A DNA stretch of 54,301 bases from a bacterium (GTDB lineage: Bacteria > Patescibacteriota > UBA1384 > 2-12-FULL-50-11), in assembly GCA_021463485.1 (NCBI GenBank), contig JAJTYJ010000004.1, positions 1-54,301 of the forward strand, in the 5' to 3' direction. Below the pieces are notes generated by a model, which saw nothing but the letters and a program-made list of their open reading frames with translations, was not told where the DNA came from and did no database searches. Positions 3,595 through 28,620 of the stretch are shown here, piece by piece. A program made the position numbers and the translations under genes. Each line of letters opens with the position of its first letter. Positions within the stretch are counted from its first letter, which is position 1.

Positions 3595-6099
3595 ATGCCA
3601 TTAAATGTTGCTCAGGCTCCTAGTCCGGTAAACACTCGAAATTTTGTCGATTTTCTCGTAAACAGAAACTTGATTAAGCCGGGTTTCAGGCAGATTTTGC
3701 GCGGCAAAGATATCCTGGAGGTAGATCGGTATCTCTTAGAAAAACGACTCTTTACGCCAGAAAGACTCCAAGAGCTATACGGCGAGTATTTCCGATTACC
3801 GTATTCTCACATTCTCAATACCCCGATACAGCCAGCAGTTGTTAATTTAATTCCAGCAGACGTTGCCAGGCGGTATAAGGTACTAGCCGTCAAGCTTGAA
3901 GGAAATGTTTTAACGCTAGCAGTTGGCGAGCCAGCGTTTCTTCAGAAAAACGCTCCAAACGCGCTATTAAATCTTCGCAAACAGAAAGGACTTCGAATCC
4001 AGTTAATGATTGTACCGGAGGCCGAAGTGATGGCGGCGATTAACAAAATATATCATCCGGCTCCGGTTACATCCGAAGCTAAAACCGAAGCACCAGAACA
4101 GTCGCAGGTAACTATCGAATCGCTCGGTACGCCACCGGTGGTGCAACCGCACGAGATTACACATCAACAGGCCCCGCGTGCAACTAATAAGGAAGATCTA
4201 ATTAAAGAAGTCGAACCACGAAAAACCGTTGATTTACGGGGGATGGAGATTCCACCTGAGACGCTCAATAAACTGCCGTACGCGGTGGCTAAAAAGTACA
4301 AGATAATTGTATTTGGCTCGCACGGCTCGAAGAGTAAGTTTGAACAGCCGCTCATCAAAGTAGCGCTCGTGAATCCAGCCGATATCCATGTTCGTGAGAT
4401 TCTAAGTTACATCGAGCAGCGTAATAAAGTACTTGTTCAGCGGCACGAGACCACTGAAGAGTCGTTTAACGCCGCACTTGAGCAGTACCCAGAATCCAAA
4501 GCCGAAAAAGCACTAAAACAAAGCCAAGAAATAAAAGAAAAAGAAACGATCGTTGCTGAACCACCAAAACCGAAAACACCAAGTTTAGCTGAAGAAGTTT
4601 CTCGCGCCTCACAGGTAAAAATCGACCCAAGCGCGAAGATCGAGACTACAACCGAAAATCTTCAGCCAGCTGCTAGTGAGCCAGTACAGAAGCCGGTTAG
4701 TCAAAAACTGAGCGATCAGGGATTATCTATCTCGGCAGCTGATATTATTAACCGACCGACAGAGGAGTCTGCGAGTGAACTTCAGCAATTGGCCAAACAA
4801 CAACAGACAACTATCGAGGATCAAAATCTAGATAAACTACTAAAACAACCAGTAACAAGCCCAGAGGATTTAGCCAAGTCATTCCGTACCGGTTTTGTAC
4901 CAGAAATCGTCGCTGCCACATTGTTTTTAGCGATTCGGATGAAGGCGAGTGACGTCCATATCGAGTCTGGCCAGGAGACGGTACGGGTCCGTTACCGAAT
5001 TGATGGCATTCTTCATGACGTTATCCGTGTACCGGCGTTCTTACACGCACCGCTAATCTCAAGAATAAAGATCCTCGCCAAGATGAAGATCGACGAACAA
5101 CGGGTTCCGCAAGACGGTCGTTTTGATGTTGTTATCGACAGTCGCCAAGTTGACTTACGTGTCTCGACGCTACCGACTGTACACGGCGAAAAGGTTGTGA
5201 TGAGACTTCTGGATAAGAGCGAAGGCATTATGACACTAGAGCAACTAGGTGTGACGGGCTCTAATTTCGATACATTAATCGCCAACATCAAAAAACCGTA
5301 CGGCGTCATTCTCTCAACCGGGCCGACTGGTTCAGGAAAATCGACGACGCTATACGCAATTCTTTCGCGCATTAGTAAGCCTGGTGTGAATATCATTACA
5401 CTAGAGGATCCGGTTGAGTACGAGTTGCCGGGGATCAACCAAGCACAAGTAAAACCGGGTATCGGTTTCACCTTCGCCGAAGGTCTACGCTCTGTATTAC
5501 GACAAGACCCAAATATCATCATGGTTGGAGAAATCCGCGATCTAGAGACGGCGGCGATGGCGACGCACGCGGCGCTGACAGGCCACTTAGTGCTTTCAAC
5601 GCTTCACACTAACGACGCATCGGGCGCTCTGCCACGTCTTATCAATATGGGCGTCGAGCCGTTCTTAATTACTTCCTCAATTAACGCCGTAATTGGCCAG
5701 CGATTAGTACGAAAAGTCTGCGACAACTGTCGTGAAAAAGTTGAGATTCCGCCAGCCGTAAAGACGTTTGTTAAAAAACAGCTCTCAGAAGTCCCGTCTG
5801 GCCAATTGAAAAATCTCGATCTCGAACAATTAACTTTCTACCACGGCAAAGGCTGCCCGAACTGTACAAACGGTTATCGAGGACGGATCGGAATATTTGA
5901 AGTCTTGGCGATGAATGAGAAGATAGAAGAGCTCGCAGTTAAAAAAGCGCCGGCGTCAGAGATAAAACGGGCGGCGATCGATGCGGGGATGATAACTATG
6001 ACACAAGATGGTTTAATAAAAGCATTAAAGGGAATCACAACCATCGACGAAGTGATGCGAGTGACTACCGCGGATAGTAAAGAATTACCAGGAGGATAA
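3595..6099 (+). CDS. pilB: type IV pilus assembly ATPase PilB/GspE family, long form (834 aa)
   Basis: Walker A GPTGSGKSTT, Asp/His boxes, and a C-terminal tetracysteine CDNC...CPNC. Two N-terminal GspE-N-like segments are separated by a long K/E/P/Q-rich linker. Confidence 0.9.
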   Translation: MPLNVAQAPSPVNTRNFVDFLVNRNLIKPGFRQILRGKDILEVDRYLLEKRLFTPERLQELYGEYFRLPYSHILNTPIQPAVVNLIPADVARRYKVLAVKLEGNVLTLAVGEPAFLQKNAPNALLNLRKQKGLRIQLMIVPEAEVMAAINKIYHPAPVTSEAKTEAPEQSQVTIESLGTPPVVQPHEITHQQAPRATNKEDLIKEVEPRKTVDLRGMEIPPETLNKLPYAVAKKYKIIVFGSHGSKSKFEQPLIKVALVNPADIHVREILSYIEQRNKVLVQRHETTEESFNAALEQYPESKAEKALKQSQEIKEKETIVAEPPKPKTPSLAEEVSRASQVKIDPSAKIETTTENLQPAASEPVQKPVSQKLSDQGLSISAADIINRPTEESASELQQLAKQQQTTIEDQNLDKLLKQPVTSPEDLAKSFRTGFVPEIVAATLFLAIRMKASDVHIESGQETVRVRYRIDGILHDVIRVPAFLHAPLISRIKILAKMKIDEQRVPQDGRFDVVIDSRQVDLRVSTLPTVHGEKVVMRLLDKSEGIMTLEQLGVTGSNFDTLIANIKKPYGVILSTGPTGSGKSTTLYAILSRISKPGVNIITLEDPVEYELPGINQAQVKPGIGFTFAEGLRSVLRQDPNIIMVGEIRDLETAAMATHAALTGHLVLSTLHTNDASGALPRLINMGVEPFLITSSINAVIGQRLVRKVCDNCREKVEIPPAVKTFVKKQLSEVPSGQLKNLDLEQLTFYHGKGCPNCTNGYRGRIGIFEVLAMNEKIEELAVKKAPASEIKRAAIDAGMITMTQDGLIKALKGITTIDEVMRVTTADSKELPGG

Positions 6100-6102
6100 A
6101 TT

Positions 6103-7170
6103 ATGGCCGAGGCAATGACCACGCAGATGAAGCAACTACTCGATACAGCTATCGAGAAGGGCGCGAGCGACTTACATATCACGGTCGGTCTGGCACCGAC
6201 GATCCGAATTGATGGTAAGCTGTTTCCGCTCACCGACGCGGGCGTGATTACACCGGAAGTAGCGCAGCGCTTACTGCTTAGTATTATGACTAGTGAGCAG
6301 GCTGAGCGTCTCCAACAACGTCGCGAGCTCGACTTCTCATTTGGGTATCAAAAGATGCGATTTCGAACCAACGCCTTTTATCAAAAAGGTAATGTCTCGG
6401 CGGCGCTTCGTTTAATTCCCGTTGCGATTAAAAGTATGGAAGAGTTAGGTGTTCCGCCGATTCTCGAGAGGTTTGCCGAGCCGAGTCAAGGTTTTGTAAT
6501 TATTACGGGCCCAACGGGTCACGGTAAATCTACTACACTCGCAGCCCTAGTCCAGAGTATTAACGCTAAGCGTGCCGAGCATATTATTACCATCGAAGAT
6601 CCGATCGAATACGTGTTTGAACATAATAAATCGATGATCGTCCAACGAGAAGTCGGCTCGGACACTAACTCGTTCTCAAGAGCGTTGCGCTCAGCCTTGC
6701 GCGAAGACCCAAACGTTGTTCTAGTTGGTGAGATGCGCGATCTGGAAACGATCGAAGCGGCGTTAACGCTGGCCGAAACTGGTCACTTGGTATTTACGAC
6801 GCTCCACACTAACTCAGCTGCGCAAACTGCCGATAGAATTATCGACGTATTTCCGCCGCACCAGCAACAACAAGTTCGAATGCAGTTAGCAAACGTTTTG
6901 TTAGGGGTTGTGTCTCAGCGATTACTACCGAGAGTACAGGGTGGACGGGTTCTAGCAACAGAAATTATGATCGCTAACTCTGCTGTTCGTAACACTATTC
7001 GCGAAGGTAAGACGCATCAGTTGCCAAATATTATTCAAACATCAGCATCAGAAGGCATGATATCGCTCGACAAAGTTTTGGCGGAGTTGGTTTCTCGCGG
7101 TGAGATTACGATTGACACCGCGTTGGCCTGGGCAATCGATCCAAAAGCCTTTAAGATGATGGTGTATTAA
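6103..7170 (+). CDS. pilT: twitching-motility retraction ATPase PilT
   Basis: Walker A GPTGHGKSTT, LVGEMRDLETI, AHLVFTTLHTNSA-type motifs. 355 aa. Confidence 0.9.
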   Translation: MAEAMTTQMKQLLDTAIEKGASDLHITVGLAPTIRIDGKLFPLTDAGVITPEVAQRLLLSIMTSEQAERLQQRRELDFSFGYQKMRFRTNAFYQKGNVSAALRLIPVAIKSMEELGVPPILERFAEPSQGFVIITGPTGHGKSTTLAALVQSINAKRAEHIITIEDPIEYVFEHNKSMIVQREVGSDTNSFSRALRSALREDPNVVLVGEMRDLETIEAALTLAETGHLVFTTLHTNSAAQTADRIIDVFPPHQQQQVRMQLANVLLGVVSQRLLPRVQGGRVLATEIMIANSAVRNTIREGKTHQLPNIIQTSASEGMISLDKVLAELVSRGEITIDTALAWAIDPKAFKMMVY

Positions 7171-21440: not shown

Positions 21441-21490
21441 TGCAGGGGATAGGGGTAGCGCTTCGCAAATAGCACCCCCTGTCCCCTGCA
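21441..21490. repeat. GC-rich palindromic intergenic element, copy 1
   Basis: TGCAGGGGATAGGGGT-loop(AGCGCTTCGCAAATAGC)-ACCCCCTGTCCCCTGCA. A near-identical copy lies at 27559-27606. Confidence 0.8.
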
Positions 21491-23990: not shown

Positions 23991-24400
23991 ACACTCAAAA
24001 AGTGTACTGCACCAAAACAAAACAGAAGTTGAAACAGTCGTGAGATCGCATCGGTAGTGCGCAGCGGAACCTACTTTCTAGTAGCTGTTCTGTCTACCAC
24101 GGCTTTTTATTTTACTTACGTTTGGATGTTTCGAATTACATCGTAGCGTTGCGCTCCCAGTGGGACGTATCCAACGCAATGATGTCGAAACAACCACTCG
24201 CAGGTATCTAAAACTTCCTTTATATAGTGCAGTCGCTTCGCAAGAAGCCTGCCGTGCGACGAATGTCCAAAGAGCTTTCGTTCATAGCGGCACACTTTAA
24301 CATTTAGTTCTCTCCAACTAGCTCATGAACGCGTGGTTACATTAATACCGCCTGTAACGTGAGCTGATTGGAGCGAACGTACCTTTCGCTCAATATGAAA
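23991..24400 (+). ncRNA. about 400 nt of ORF-free, hairpin-dense sequence. Candidate structured RNA(s), family unknown.
   Basis: Long imperfect hairpin 24128-24191. Stem CTCCAACTAGCTCA(24312-25)/TGAGCTGATTGGAG(24360-73) encloses GTTAC...GTAAC. Stem GAGCGAA(24371-77)/TTCGCTC(24385-91). Possible T-run stop near 24105-24115. Confidence 0.35.
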
Positions 24401-24402
24401 AT

Positions 24403-24541
24403 GGGGGCGTAAGGGTTCGACAGAGAGGGTAAGAGCGGTGTCTGAGCGTGGTAGCTCGAGTTGGGAAAATGCCTAAACAAAAACCAACGACAATCGTGTT
24501 TCTCTTTTTGGAACCGGGTTCAATTCCCGGCGCCTCCACCA
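24403..24541 (+). ncRNA. ssrA: tmRNA-like gene with a complete tRNA-like domain but only 139 nt long
   Basis: GGGGGCG pairs with CGCCTCC, including a G3:U pair, followed by ACCA. GGGTTCGAC D-analogue. T-arm CCGGG-TTCAATT-CCCGG. Helix-2-like AGAGAGG(24422-28)/TTTCTCT(24499-505). Confidence 0.7.
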
Positions 24542-24581
24542 ATCTTTGCCTTTGGCGCCGGGGATCACACAGTTACGGCGT

Positions 24582-24602
24582 ATTCCCGGCGCCTCCACCA
24601 AT
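24582..24602 (+). repeat. direct repeat of the tmRNA 3' end (att-like)
   Basis: ATTCCCGGCGCCTCCACCAAT is identical to 24523-24543. Confidence 0.85.
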
Positions 24603-24627
24603 ATCCTCGGCGAGTTTATCTCGCTTT

Positions 24628-24680
24628 CTCCAACCCGCTCGCAATTAATATCTACCGATGAGATTGCGAGTGGATTGGAG
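24628..24680. other. 18-bp imperfect hairpin at the tmRNA/island junction
   Basis: CTCCAACCCGCTCGCAAT(24628-45)/ATTGCGAGTGGATTGGAG(24663-80), two mismatches, no U-tract. Confidence 0.6.
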
Positions 24681-24868
24681 AGAGTAATAGTATATGTCTT
24701 CGTAGTTTCTGTTTGTCGGTGCCCTCTCGGCTGGGATTAGGGAGAGCTGTCATTACAGGCTGAGCTTGCTCGACCTCGACAGTTTCCCTCCTTCCCTCTT
24801 CCTGGCTGAGATGGCGCTGACAAGAGCGTCACCGCGATCCGCGGAATGCACGCACAGGAGTTACAAAG

Positions 24869-26041
24869 ATGAAGAAATCCGCAATTCTGATGGCGGTGGT
24901 TCTTGCCATTGCCCCAACTTTCGCAAAGGCACAGTTGCTCGAGTCGTTGCTCTTCGGAGCAATCAGCTCGGGTATCAACGCCCGGATCGCCCAAACGCAA
25001 GAACGTCCGATTTCGGCCGTCAAGGTCGTTTTCGACGTTTACATCGTCAAGGGTGATCAACCGACATATTTCACGAGCTGGGACCCCACCACTCAGACTT
25101 CGGTCTGGTTTGGTGACAAGGTTCTGCTGAAGGTGAAAGCCTTCACGAACAGTTCGCCTGCTCACGACCATACAATCTACGTCAACGACAAGCTAGTCGA
25201 GTGGCGGAAGGTCGAAGGTGGCAGGGTGGTGAGAGGTAGACCCAGCGGCGCTCAGGGCGTGGTTGGCGACTATCCGTTCATCGCCGTCAGCGACCTAGAT
25301 CTTGGAATCAACCAGATCAAGGTTCGTACGAGCCGTACGGAGTGGGGGAGCGCGACGTTTATTCGTCTCGATATCCGCCAGTTTCTCCAAATGGCCGCTG
25401 ACGAGCAAGCTCGCCTGGCTACGGCCGGCGCGGGTGGAAGTATGTATCCGGTCGTTCAGTCTTACACGGCTCAGATGCCGGACGGAACGATTCGGAACTT
25501 CACTTCGCTTGAGGAGTTCCAGATTGCCCTGCAGGGTCGACCGGCTAACCAGCCGCCGACTACGCAGACAGGCAACACCGCTTTGCCCGGTGGTTTTCCA
25601 ACTGGTGCAAACGTCGGTAACGCAGGAAACGCTGGAACGGCCGGTGCTAACCAGCCTCCAGTCGAGTTTTGTGCTGTTACTGTTGGTGCGATGCAAACAA
25701 GTTCGGAGCAGAAGTTCGACTTCCTCCGTTCAGAGCTGAACACCACCGAGCAGCAACTACTCGGAGATGCACGTCGTCACACGTTCGCACCGGAGGTAAC
25801 TGAGATCCAGTTATCCTCCCGTCGGAATCAGGTGGTACTGACGTTGAGCGACTCTAGGCCGTTTACAGCGGTGCTCAGACTCGACGACAAAGACCATCCG
25901 CTTTCGGTGCGTCGAAGCGGCGATCGCCACGAAGCGATAGCCTGGGGAAGTATCAAGCGCTTCCTTGGAGCGACGATCACACTGATCGACGCCGACGGAC
26001 GAGAGCGAACTCTCGTCTTCCGCTTGAGCGAGGAGAACTAA
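24869..26041 (+). CDS. secreted hypothetical protein (390 aa), high G+C
   Basis: SD AGGAG. Sec signal MKKSAILMAVVLAIAPTFAKA/Q. Central G/N/A/T/P low-complexity linker. I recognise no family. Confidence 0.7.
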   Translation: MKKSAILMAVVLAIAPTFAKAQLLESLLFGAISSGINARIAQTQERPISAVKVVFDVYIVKGDQPTYFTSWDPTTQTSVWFGDKVLLKVKAFTNSSPAHDHTIYVNDKLVEWRKVEGGRVVRGRPSGAQGVVGDYPFIAVSDLDLGINQIKVRTSRTEWGSATFIRLDIRQFLQMAADEQARLATAGAGGSMYPVVQSYTAQMPDGTIRNFTSLEEFQIALQGRPANQPPTTQTGNTALPGGFPTGANVGNAGNAGTAGANQPPVEFCAVTVGAMQTSSEQKFDFLRSELNTTEQQLLGDARRHTFAPEVTEIQLSSRRNQVVLTLSDSRPFTAVLRLDDKDHPLSVRRSGDRHEAIAWGSIKRFLGATITLIDADGRERTLVFRLSEEN

Positions 26042-26042
26042 G

Positions 26043-26795
26043 ATGAAACTGATCCACACCCCTCTCGTCATTGTCGCTCTGATCTGCGCCAGCCTCGCTG
26101 GTGCGCAGAGCATTGACCCAACAACGAGTTCTGGGACTCGGGAGTTCATCCGAGAGTACCAGGAAGGCCCGGACCTTCTGCTCTCCAAGGACTACCAATG
26201 GTCCTACTCGCGACTTCCGGTGAGCAACGAGGGCACGTACCGACGTGCCGGTCGTCAGGGCGAGTACGGTTGGGTTCACTACCGCAACCGTAACGAGTTC
26301 AAGTACGAATCACTCGCTGGTCGCCAGGTTCTCTGCGATCGCAAGACTGACCTTCCTCTTCAAATTGTCGCTTGCGGCAATCTGATCTGGCAGCGAAGCG
26401 CGGTCAAGACTGAGACCCGAACGCTGACGTACCAACGCACTTTGGTTCGAGAGTACCGAGTGACGGTACCTGGTCCCGAACGACGGGTCGAAGTGCCGGT
26501 CTACGTGCCGGTCGATCGGCCGGTCGAAGTGCCGAAGTACATTCCTGTCATGTTGCTGCCCACGCAACAGCAACACATCGCCAACCTGGGCGCTCCGACG
26601 GTGATCTCGCCGGTGATCGGCGGCGTCTCCTTCAATGCCCAGCTGGGCAAGGGCAATACGTTCAACGTTGCAGCTCTTGCTTTCGGCGGTGCAGGTGGCG
26701 CGGGCGGGAGCTCGTCTTCGAGCTCCAGCTCTTCCAGTTCTTCCTCTTCGTCGTCATCGTCGAGCTCCAGCTCGGCAGCAGCGGCAGGGGGATAG
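26043..26795 (+). CDS. secreted hypothetical protein (250 aa) with VEVP repeats and a C-terminal poly-Ser tract, high G+C
   Basis: Signal MKLIHTPLVIVALICASLAGA/QS. VEVPVYVPVDRPVEVPKYIPV repeats. Ends in about 30 Ser then AAAAGG. Start is 1 nt after the upstream stop. Confidence 0.65.
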   Translation: MKLIHTPLVIVALICASLAGAQSIDPTTSSGTREFIREYQEGPDLLLSKDYQWSYSRLPVSNEGTYRRAGRQGEYGWVHYRNRNEFKYESLAGRQVLCDRKTDLPLQIVACGNLIWQRSAVKTETRTLTYQRTLVREYRVTVPGPERRVEVPVYVPVDRPVEVPKYIPVMLLPTQQQHIANLGAPTVISPVIGGVSFNAQLGKGNTFNVAALAFGGAGGAGGSSSSSSSSSSSSSSSSSSSSSSAAAAGG

Positions 26796-26803
26796 AACAT
26801 CCT

Positions 26804-26849
26804 TTCCGAGGTGCAGGCCTTAAAACCTGTGCCTCGGAACATTTCTTTT
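26804..26849 (+). terminator. intrinsic terminator after the two high-G+C genes
   Basis: TTCCGAGGTGCAGG/CCTGTGCCTCGGAA (2-nt internal mismatch) followed by a T-rich tract. Confidence 0.6.
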
Positions 26850-26943
26850 CCGACTAATTAGAAGTCGAGATTAGTCTGAAAAGTGAATGAAAAAATATAA
26901 GCACACTTGCCTCAGGGCAAGTGAGATGATAATAGGAGATATA

Positions 26944-27486
26944 ATGAAATATATATTAGTTTCCATCTTAGTTGCCTTAACAGTAGCCTTTACTAGCCCT
27001 GCGCTAGTTGCCGCTGCTTCAAGTTCTAGTTCTTCGAGCTCAAGCTCGTCTGCTAGTTCTTCAAGCGCTGCTTCGGCTAGTGTTGGTGGCGTATCAGCTT
27101 CTGCTGGTGCCGGTGCTTCTGCTGGTTCGGCCGCTTCAAGCGGTTCGTCTAGCTCTAGCGGTTCGAGTTCATCTAGTTCTTCAAGTTCTAGTTCAAGCTC
27201 GAGCTCAAGTTCTTCGTCTGCAACAAGCGGTGGTAACACCGTAACTCAGACGGCGGATTGTCCGAGCGCTTTTGCTTCAGCCAGCTCCGCTGCTAGCTCG
27301 TCTTCGAGCGCCAGCGCAGCTAAAGCTGCTGCGAAGTGTGCCAACAAAGTGGTAGTTAGCAAGACTGTCACCACCTTACCAAAGGCTGGTGCGGAAGCTG
27401 CTATCCTTCCGGGTGCGTTAACAACCCTAGCGGTTGCTTTACGTCGCTACATGTTAGCTCGCAAAGAAGCTAACTTACTTGCGTAA
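26944..27486 (+). CDS. Ser/Ala-rich surface protein with a sortase-like C-terminal sorting signal
   Basis: SD AGGAG. Signal MKYILVSILVALTVAFTSPALVAA. Long S/A/G tracts. C-terminus is LPKAG plus a hydrophobic stretch plus RRYMLARKE. Confidence 0.65.
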   Translation: MKYILVSILVALTVAFTSPALVAAASSSSSSSSSSSASSSSAASASVGGVSASAGAGASAGSAASSGSSSSSGSSSSSSSSSSSSSSSSSSSATSGGNTVTQTADCPSAFASASSAASSSSSASAAKAAAKCANKVVVSKTVTTLPKAGAEAAILPGALTTLAVALRRYMLARKEANLLA

Positions 27487-27558: not shown

Positions 27559-27606
27559 GTGGGGATAAGGGTAGCGCTTCGCAAGTAGCACCCCCTGTCC
27601 CCTGCA
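27559..27606. repeat. GC-rich palindromic intergenic element, copy 2
   Basis: GTGGGGATAAGGGTAGCGCTTCGCAAGTAGCACCCCCTGTCCCCTGCA. The right arm and loop are almost identical to 21441-21490. Confidence 0.8.
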
Positions 27607-27633: not shown

Positions 27634-28620
27634 ATGAATAATCGTAAAAAAGAACTAGAAATACTACTTGGCATCCCATCTAAGCAAGAGCGTCTTGCCT
27701 ATATTCAAGAACAGATGAAAAACCCGGAGTTCTGGAGCGATCATCAACAAGCCGCCAAGTTGACTCAGGAATACAAACATCTTGAAGACATGCTACTTAG
27801 ATTTGAACTAGCTGAAAGCGATCACGACCTCGACGAACTAGAGCGCGAAGCAGTTTTCACTGGCGAACACGACGACGCAAATGCGTATCTATCTGTCCAC
27901 GCTGGCTCTGGTGGAACCGAAGCTCAGGATTGGGCCGAAATGCTCTTACGTCTCTACACTCGTTATTGTGAACGCGCTAACTTTAAAGTGGAGTTGCTAG
28001 AAAAAAGCGCCGGTGAAGAAGCGGGGATTAAAAGTGCGATGCTGCAAGTTAAAGGCTTTCGAGCGTACGGCAAGCTCAAAGGAGAAGGCGGAGTTCATAG
28101 ACTTGTCCGAATCTCGCCGTTTGATGCTAGCAAATCTCGGCACACCTCGTTTGCGCTTGTAGAGGTTGTTCCAGAAGTTGAAAAATCAGAGTTGGTAATT
28201 AATCCAGACGAGCTTAAGATCGATGTTTATCGAGCCGGCGGCCACGGCGGTCAAGGCGTTAATACCACCGACTCAGCTGTTCGAATCACCCATCTGCCGT
28301 CAAAGATCGTAGTTACCTGTCAAAACGAACGCAGTCAGTTGCAAAATAAACTGCAGGCTATGAAAATCCTTCAAGCAAAGCTACAATTACTCGAGGAAGA
28401 ACGACAGCGCGCCGAAGAACAAAAGCATAAAGGCGAGCCAGTCTTAGCTTCCTGGGGAAACCAGATTCGATCGTACGTATTACAGCCTTATCAACTCGTT
28501 AAAGATGTGCGCAGCGGTTTTGAAACCAGCGCTGTTAACGACGTGCTCGACGGTGAGATCGAACCGTTCATCGACGCTTACGCAAAATATTTATTACTAA
28601 GAAGAAAGGAAACTAAATAA
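27634..28620 (+). CDS. prfB: peptide chain release factor 2, single uninterrupted frame
   Basis: SPF tripeptide (RISPFDA), GGQ motif (GGHGGQGVNTTDSAVRITH). 328 aa. Confidence 0.9.
   Translation: MNNRKKELEILLGIPSKQERLAYIQEQMKNPEFWSDHQQAAKLTQEYKHLEDMLLRFELAESDHDLDELEREAVFTGEHDDANAYLSVHAGSGGTEAQDWAEMLLRLYTRYCERANFKVELLEKSAGEEAGIKSAMLQVKGFRAYGKLKGEGGVHRLVRISPFDASKSRHTSFALVEVVPEVEKSELVINPDELKIDVYRAGGHGGQGVNTTDSAVRITHLPSKIVVTCQNERSQLQNKLQAMKILQAKLQLLEEERQRAEEQKHKGEPVLASWGNQIRSYVLQPYQLVKDVRSGFETSAVNDVLDGEIEPFIDAYAKYLLLRRKETK

Follow-up and report, generated by a model that had tools for sequence, protein, structure and literature searches.

Evidence for a miniature RNA of the tmRNA type in a bacterium of the Patescibacteriota

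The 54,301-nucleotide (nt) stretch analyzed here (contig JAJTYJ010000004.1, hereafter the window), from a bacterium of the Patescibacteriota, contains at positions 24403-24541 a 139-nt gene related to that of transfer-messenger RNA (tmRNA, the product of ssrA). Our comparison of sequences and predicted structures indicates that this locus probably specifies a real, selectively maintained miniature RNA of the tmRNA type. Its most likely function, on the model developed below, would be a form of ribosome rescue that adds alanine, or in this species Ala-Ala, without a degradation tag. An original prediction, made from the letters of the window, had offered three explanations for the locus. The first, a drastically reduced tmRNA, is the one we favor, since the gene is intact in two strain alleles and belongs to a 59-member family with covarying helices. 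The second, an RNA consisting of the tRNA-like domain only, does not fit a 139-nt gene that retains a long helix 2 and two conserved hairpins. The third, a remnant of integration and excision, fails for the gene itself and is still plausible for a 21-nt copy of its 3′ end located downstream. The elements of the gene are as follows (bp, base pairs; PK, pseudoknot):

24403-24541, forward strand: mini-tmRNA gene, 139 nt including the encoded CCA (RF00023, 70.9 bits; our own model R1, 149.7 bits)
24403-24409, forward strand: 5′ strand of the acceptor stem, GGGGGCG, pairing with CGCCUCC at 24531-24537 in 7 bp that include G3:U (sequence)
24413-24421, forward strand: GGGUUCGAC, the D-loop analogue of the tRNA-like domain (sequence; aligned to the RF00023 consensus GGaUUCGAC)
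24422-24442, forward strand: 5′ strand of helix 2, paired with 24489-24509 in 8+3+5+3 bp (minimum-free-energy fold)
24443-24458, forward strand: hairpin A, stem UGAGC/GCUCG and loop GUGGUA, at the canonical PK1 position (fold; family covariation)
24460-24488, forward strand: hairpin B, stem GUUGG/CCAAC and 19-nt loop GAAAAUGCCUAAACAAAAA (fold; compensatory changes in the family)
24471-24476, forward strand: GCC-UAA, the putative resume codon, a conserved Ala codon that follows an A-rich leader, with a stop next to it
24514-24530, forward strand: T arm, CCGGG-UUCAAUU-CCCGG (sequence; pairing in the family)
24538, forward strand: discriminator A, followed at 24539-24541 by the encoded CCA (sequence)

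The Rfam tmRNA model RF00023 covers 24403-24541 on the forward strand from model position 1 to 374, with a score of 70.9 bits (gathering score 47; E 1.2e-25), and is the sole Rfam match within the window. In this alignment 52 nt stand in place of 278 internal model positions. A weak match of the permuted model tmRNA_permuted to 24514-24577 (21.6 bits against 47) was rejected, being merely the T arm plus a run of G. ARAGORN, which the original prediction had proposed running alongside Rfam, reports no tmRNA in the window. The tRNA-like domain is complete and of the alanine type, with the acceptor G3:U70 pair, T arm, D-loop analogue, discriminator A and CCA all apparent in the sequence and the Rfam alignment; in this respect the original prediction, which had named the 7-bp G3:U acceptor, the T arm and the terminal ACCA, was correct. 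The D-loop analogue is the region that contacts SmpB in canonical tmRNA.

The minimum-free-energy fold of the gene has an energy of -52.7 kcal/mol (z = -2.8) and forms a three-way junction of helix 2 with hairpins A and B. Helix 2, originally described as a 7-bp pairing, is instead an interrupted helix of 19 bp (8+3+5+3) between gene positions 20-40 and 87-107 (counted from 24403). It encloses 46 nt, which give only hairpin A (gene positions 41-56) and hairpin B (58-86), and the fold contains no equivalent of helix 5 or of PK2-PK4. No pseudoknot occupies the place of PK1, where the simple hairpin at 24443-24458 is found instead. A pseudoknot of 3-4 bp between GGUA of loop A and UGCC is possible in the window; we rejected it because it fails in one of the nearest relatives (L108) and shows no covariation, as follows from the invariance of loop A. 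Hairpin A (GAGC-GUGGUA-GCUC) has what we take to be a resemblance to the D arm of tRNA (GCUC-AGUGGUA-GAGC), including the GG and the closing A.

A pattern scan of public metagenome contigs, requiring the tRNA-like domain and 80-110 nt between GGNUUCGAC and the T arm, returned 71 loci (loci are referred to below by L numbers). Genes of 63-68 nt consisting only of a tRNA-like domain fused to tRNAs, a deleted enterobacterial ssrA and three chance matches were set aside before modeling. From five sequences, namely both alleles of the gene (that of the window and its sister) and those of the nearest relatives L152, L139 and L108 (72-78% identical), we built a covariance model on a hand-drawn structure. 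This model recovers 59 distinct sequences of 121-146 nt with scores of 36-155 bits. All 59 have the same architecture, comprising the tRNA-like domain, a long helix 2, hairpin A with its GUGGUA loop, and hairpin B with an AAAAN-GCC motif.

The paired structure is supported by covariation. In the model alignment 94.8% of cells are paired, compared with 61.5% after shuffling and 44-55% when partners are slid by 1-3 columns. Likewise, the covariation score is 0.596, compared with 0.13 for shuffled alignments (none of 500 reaches the observed value) and 0.05-0.07 for slid partners. Compensatory changes occur in all seven helices. The acceptor stem is 99.8% paired and has G3:U in 59 of 59 sequences, its first four and last four bases having been fixed by the search pattern; the T arm, also with compensatory changes, is 99.7% paired. 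Helix 2 and hairpin B lie outside the search pattern. Compensatory changes are seen in 14 of the 14 modeled pairs of helices 2-4 and in 5 of the 5 pairs of the hairpin B stem, in which 94.4% of cells are paired. The stem of hairpin A covaries even in a plain MAFFT alignment that is independent of the model, and the GUGGUA loop is invariant or nearly so across 20 sequences. Internal hairpins and invariant loops common to so many genes are not what separate deletions, like that in L118, would yield.

Loop B is similarly constrained. In the 20-sequence MAFFT alignment its A-rich segment and GC motif are invariant or at least 90% conserved, and the base that follows varies (GCC, GCG, GCU or GCA). 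We read this GCN as an alanine codon because the GC is constant while the third base varies. The motif AAAAN-GCN resembles the RF00023 consensus AAAAAAUAAuU-GCa, which contains the leader and resume codon. In the window the conserved GCC is directly followed by UAA, an arrangement common to only a few relatives. No conserved tag frame exists across the family in any of the three frames read from the conserved GC. In roughly half of the family, no stop follows the conserved GCN in frame, and in four sequences (L109, L141, L151 and L168) no frame contains a stop before the 3′ end. Neither the loop-B GCN frame nor the frame of the originally predicted tag, AVSERGSSSWENA, terminates in the three nearest relatives.

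The intact tRNA-like domain allows the following course of events to be predicted. RNase P and 3′ processing would free a CCA-ended RNA of about 139 nt, which would be charged by alanyl-tRNA synthetase through the G3:U pair. With SmpB and EF-Tu, the charged RNA would then move into the vacant A site of a stalled ribosome, where it would accept the nascent chain. The mRNA-like domain of canonical tmRNA, together with helix 5 and the four pseudoknots, makes up a ring of 81 x 97 Å encircling the 30S beak (PMC8363625). The 46 nt enclosed by helix 2 would be too short for such a ring, which allows the coding region of canonical tmRNA to be threaded into the mRNA channel, and a normal degradation tag would not be templated; canonical message loading appears unlikely because 46 nt, even when unfolded, would barely span the perimeter of the ring. 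In the window species at most Ala-Ala would be added (via GCC-UAA) before release, and otherwise another factor would have to free the chain. Work on E. coli by Nameki in 2000 and Tanner in 2006 reportedly found PK2-4 to be replaceable and PK1 to be replaceable by a hairpin. On that basis, hairpin A followed after 13 nt by GCC would make a plausible minimal resume module. A more far-reaching proposal is that the mini-tmRNAs of ~120-146 nt form a distinct class, defined by the tRNA-like domain, helix 2 and one or two hairpins without a pseudoknot ring or conserved tag frame and found in ultra-small Patescibacteria-type bacteria and large phages with tRNA arrays, and that the gene described here is the only ssrA of its host, acting in a rescue free of both tag and threading. 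We advance this only tentatively and think it rather doubtful as a whole.

Judged by its sequence, the window is bacterial chromosome and not phage or plasmid. Its CysS protein is 100% identical to that of Patescibacteria group bacterium BroJett034 (BOKZ01000001.1), and E. coli genomes, phages and plasmids gave no megablast match to the locus. The neighboring genes are housekeeping genes, with dprA, topA, recR and cysS upstream and prfB and pth downstream, and ribosomal protein genes are also nearby on strain contigs. We found an identical CysS on 12 contigs, drawn from JGI, Logan and NCBI assemblies, among which there are two alleles of the mini-tmRNA gene, 139 and 138 nt long and 97% identical, the sister allele being that of L001, L003, L005 and L007. 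The alleles differ in three places: one strand of helix 2 has GUG changed to AAG, the base of hairpin A has G changed to A, and there is a 1-nt bulge. Both alleles retain every helix, and the gene is intact in all strain contigs seen.

The sequence abutting the first base of the gene is wholly different between the alleles (24 nt here versus 203 nt in L001), and the strains diverge across 24377-24402. In L001 (11774-11986) a 70-amino-acid (aa) open reading frame (ORF) abuts the gene, and its UAA stop is formed by bases 8-10 of the tmRNA, so that the RNase P cut at the tmRNA 5′ end would turn its message into a non-stop mRNA. A non-stop mRNA from a gene overlapping tmRNA has been discussed for Carsonella (Hudson et al. 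2014). The 70-aa ORF has no family match. The mini-tmRNA gene sits in a variable slot between two conserved hairpins, HP1 at 24307-24378 and HP2 at 24621-24684. The features flanking the gene are:

24307-24378, forward strand: upstream hairpin HP1, CUCCAAC...GAUUGGAG, which bounds the variable slot (fold -35 kcal/mol, z = -6.3)
24621-24830, forward strand: hairpin HP2, CUCCAAC...AUUGGAG, and a long structured leader, context outside the tmRNA (z = -6.05 and -5.25)
24869-27486, forward strand: three genes for signal-peptide proteins of 390, 250 and 199 aa, strain-variable, context only

Two more distant relatives with CysS 68-69% identical (L012 and L013) keep cysS, diverged orthologs of the secreted-protein genes, the CUCCAAC...AUUGGAG hairpin and the long leader. 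With permissive thresholds and filters off, neither shows a tmRNA, mini or canonical, at this locus, and the position of the gene is consequently not ancestral over a distance of 69% CysS identity. The three secreted-protein genes are barely alignable between strains. We considered 24824-27360 as a genomic island and ruled this out, since diverged orthologs occur in the same order in L012.

These observations bear on an alternative that we regard as unlikely, though it deserves to be weighed, in which the gene is an accessory mini-tmRNA of phage origin, brought in by a mobile element since decayed, that competes with a canonical ssrA located elsewhere or modifies trans-translation, for instance through rescue that lacks proteolytic tagging or through inhibition. 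A horizontal origin is possible because many family members stand in tRNA arrays on phage-like contigs. Such members head or adjoin arrays of 32 tRNAs (L147 and L153), 11 (L091) and 10 (L141), and the proteins encoded beside them match phage families, including SNF2 and DnaB helicases, a family A polymerase and phrog_2319, as well as phrog_62, phrog_19 and phrog_17. Seven family members are in the viral database IMG/VR. Also in keeping with this alternative are the abundance of still smaller tmRNA-like genes in viral contigs (described below), the difference between strains exactly at the 5′ end of the gene, the gene-less relatives with the same flanks, the att-like repeat at the 3′ end, and the precedent of mycobacteriophage DS6A (PMC11915505). 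Against it, no integrase or phage gene lies near the locus in the window, the neighboring genes have no PHROG match and the adjacent ORFs no integrase domain, and those neighbors are diverged orthologs of the L012 genes and form no island. The three closest relatives with usable context are found among housekeeping genes, and the gene is intact in each strain contig seen. The context of L152 includes UvrC and an Nfo-type endonuclease, and that of L121, on a 309-kb contig, includes EF-P, SSB, a Xer-type recombinase and methyltransferases; the window has no proteins in common with L108, L121 or L152.

Several features of these and other loci are worth recording in their own right. A 32-tRNA array directly follows a 146-nt mini-tmRNA in both L147 (1248-5183) and L153 (7474-11409), and smaller arrays are similarly placed in L091, L106, L130, L141 and L132. 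Two mini-tmRNA contigs, L133 (14.5 kb) and L095 (9.7 kb), contain none or one ORF of at least 170 aa under genetic code 11 and may use a reassigned stop codon. At least 120 viral contigs in IMG/VR, among the matches listed (L206-L285 and further loci), carry genes of 63-92 nt that consist of the tRNA-like domain only, and the size bins of 95-125, 121-149 and 152-185 nt have 8, 7 and 9 matches. Tiny tmRNA-like genes thus appear, from these counts, to be common in uncultured phages. A BLAST search of the gene against cultured phages matched the generic 3′ end only. A Cellulophaga phage tmRNA found with a marine relative was discarded, being of full length (362 nt) and not mini.

The gene is followed by a copy of its own 3′ end, which the original prediction had noted and which is exact and non-random:

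24523-24543, forward strand: repeat copy 1, ATTCCCGGCGCCTCCACCAAT, 21 nt, which takes in the final 3 nt of the T loop and ends 2 nt beyond the CCA
24554-24602, forward strand: downstream hairpin, with 5′ strand GGCGCCGGGGAT at 24554-24565 and repeat copy 2 (24582-24602) as 3′ strand

All 21 nt are identical between the copies, which are separated by 38 nt; an 18-mer of the repeat occurs twice in the window against 0.05 occurrences expected with three mismatches allowed. The 12-bp minihelix attributed to the second copy folds as described (GGCGCCGGGGAU with AUUCCCGGCGCC, z = -3.75). Both alleles have the repeat, and the hairpin of L001 is longer by GGAG/CUCC. GC-rich counterpart hairpins are present at the loci without tmRNA, at 8573-8604 in L012 and 9131-9166 in L013, their 3′ strands (CCCCCACCUCCAUCA and CCCCCACCUCCCUCA, respectively) consisting of a T-stem-like and an acceptor-like strand. 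No 3′-end repeats were found at the other mini-tmRNA loci. A layout of this kind is reportedly left behind when an integrase crosses over in the T loop of a tRNA or tmRNA gene (Williams 2002, 2003). By analogy, the copy is best read as an old scar of site-specific recombination of the T-loop type that has been kept as a stable hairpin. This hairpin may be a terminator or a 3′-end structure, and its sequence may have been reset by later recombination with the gene. The 38-nt spacing, the lack of an integrase, the presence of the copy in both alleles and the longer sister hairpin speak against a recent scar. Neither an integrase domain nor a PHROG match turned up in the ORFs around the repeats, and the two alleles show no presence/absence polymorphism. 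A scan of viral contigs with the 19-nt 3′ end gave 34 matches, all to ordinary or permuted tmRNAs of other bacteria, and was uninformative because this 3′ end is common to ordinary tmRNAs of unrelated bacteria.

The repeat, taken as a sign of past recombination at this site, would suit a non-functional pseudogene formed from a canonical ssrA by loss of its middle, for example at integration or excision. A one-off case of internal loss is seen in L118, where an enterobacterial ssrA stands beside smpB. We consider this explanation very improbable for the window gene. Both alleles keep all helices, differing only in a helix 2 strand, a stem end and a bulge, and the 59 relatives have the same internal hairpins, loop motifs and compensatory changes. 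The occurrence of the gene in two alleles from independent assemblies and in 59 relatives with covarying helices argues that it is not a deletion remnant. In L118 itself (5461-6219; SmpB 91% identical to that of E. coli) the ~230 internal nt missing from ssrA run from the 3′ side of PK1 to helix 2, through either a true deletion or a misassembly.

The weakest alternative is an ordinary tagging tmRNA that encodes the 13-residue tag AVSERGSSSWENA, or AKSERGSSSWENA in the sister allele. The frame from GCG at 24435 to a UAA does exist, is open, coincides with the frame reported by ARAGORN in L001, and has a synonymous change (TCG to TCA) among its three differences between the alleles. It is not the sole Ala-initiated frame, as had been claimed, since GCC(24471)-UAA is nested within it in the same frame. 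We regard the frame as spurious because it begins within the 5′ strand of helix 2, then crosses hairpin A, and is unterminated in the nearest relatives: the conservation check proposed with the original prediction found its equivalent open to the 3′ end, with the stop never reached, in L152, L139 and L108. With no A-rich single-stranded leader before it and no hydrophobic C-terminus on the peptide, the chance that it is a genuine tag is slighter than that of any other explanation considered here. ARAGORN's call in the sister allele begins 45 nt upstream of where Rfam begins, and its calls in relatives were set aside for wrong ends or spurious tags.

Returning to the interpretation as a maintained miniature tmRNA, several points weigh against it. 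The search pattern imposed the features of the tRNA-like domain (acceptor ends and T loop) and the size range, and the alignment used for covariation had been fitted to the model. The argument from size against threading is a geometric one, and the GCC-UAA arrangement could be chance. The many members in tRNA arrays on phage-like contigs and the absence of tmRNA at the locus in the same-flank relatives L012 and L013 likewise tell against it. A tblastn search for smpB beside 77-78 loci found only that of the unrelated L118. In the window species smpB was not found by tblastn in the 54 kb covered of a genome of ~0.69 Mb, and a 4.5-kb extension likewise gave nothing relevant.

Some further features of the neighborhood were noted in passing. 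A long-range stem of ~110 nt (-64 kcal/mol, z = -5.25) and HP2 lie directly upstream of the first secreted-protein gene, and counterparts of HP2 and the leader, with compensatory changes, are found at 8655-8824 in L012 and 9450-9624 in L013, for all that CysS identity is only 69%. They have no Rfam match and are candidates for a structured 5′ leader, or a cis-regulatory RNA, in Saccharibacteria-like bacteria. A 46-nt hairpin-forming repeat, GGGGATAGGGGTAGCGCTTCGCAAATAGCACCCCCTGTCCCCTGCA, is present upstream of recR and prfB (21445-21490 and 27561-27606, 96% identical), with a partial core at 24234-24248. The listed prfB ORF (27634-28620) picks up the PCRF domain only from about residue 58 (TIGR00020 positions 92-352), so its N-terminal part must be in another frame, as the programmed +1 frameshift of RF2 would lead one to expect. 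Within the variable secreted-protein genes, at 26465-26548 and 26709-27315, a tandem periodicity of 12 nt is seen along with low-complexity repeats that are Ser-rich or acidic.

If this conserved RNA works without a ring, the minimal functional core would come down to a tRNA-like domain and helix 2 with one hairpin and an Ala codon. Such an RNA would provide a natural test case for tag-free rescue, an idea also raised for mitochondrial tmRNAs, and, were it the sole ssrA, would constitute a natural minimal trans-translation system. It would also tie the streamlined translation apparatus of Patescibacteria to the RNAs of large phages. For annotation, such genes are overlooked or wrongly modeled by standard gene finders (ARAGORN is silent on the window and its tag calls in relatives are spurious), and predicted tag peptides of mini-tmRNA genes should not be trusted.

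In the literature, of which our coverage was incomplete and gives no proof of absence, we found no description of a one-piece tmRNA family of ~130 nt, and work on huge phages mentions tmRNAs only as ARAGORN calls. The tmRNA database lists 5252 standard tmRNAs in 6765 Patescibacteria genomes (PMC11915505). It also holds nine 'Standard NoCDS' sequences overall, with three instances in Patescibacteria, and singles out 9FT-COMBO-53-11 sp001772805 as one that may be without a tag frame (PMC11915505). These entries are like the gene described here in being one-piece, belonging to the same phylum and possibly having no tag reading frame; the comparison is by description only, and neither a mini architecture nor a phage distribution is described there (PMC11915505). 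These few entries may belong to the mini-tmRNA family.

Relatives consisting only of the tRNA-like domain are known from jakobid and oomycete mitochondria, from plastid genes of ~65 bp in Mallomonadaceae and from mycobacteriophage DS6A, whose RNA is reported to inhibit E. coli tmRNA (PMC11915505). They share with the window gene a reduced size, the lack of a usable tag frame and an activity presumed to be limited to the tRNA-like half. They are 65-100 nt long or permuted and are without helix 2 extensions or internal hairpins, whereas the gene here retains both hairpins and a conserved Ala codon besides its helix 2 of 19 bp. The genes of 63-92 nt in viral contigs fall into a size class separate from the mini-tmRNA family.

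The 3′-end copy is comparable to the att sites that islands and prophages use at the 3′ end of ssrA, in that there is a direct repeat which begins within the T loop and stops shortly after the CCA. Unlike those sites, the copies are only 38 nt apart, no integrase is present, both alleles carry the copy, and it lies in a hairpin that has a counterpart in gene-less relatives. With respect to coding, the tmRNAs of Fermentibacterota, which have two-residue Ala-Ala tags (PMC11915505), are similarly minimal, as GCC-UAA would specify a single Ala here. Those tmRNAs are otherwise of standard form, whereas the window gene has no pseudoknot ring and its short frame is not preserved in relatives.

Compared with the canonical one-piece tmRNA (SsrA, RF00023; 363 nt in E. 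coli), the window gene lacks PK2-PK4 and helix 5, has a hairpin of 4-5 bp in place of PK1, encloses 46 nt within helix 2 instead of ~280 model positions, and has no conserved tag frame. It nonetheless scores above the Rfam gathering threshold and shares with canonical tmRNA the 7-bp G3:U acceptor, GGNUUCGAC, the T arm, the ACCA end, helix 2 and an A-rich leader before a GCN codon.

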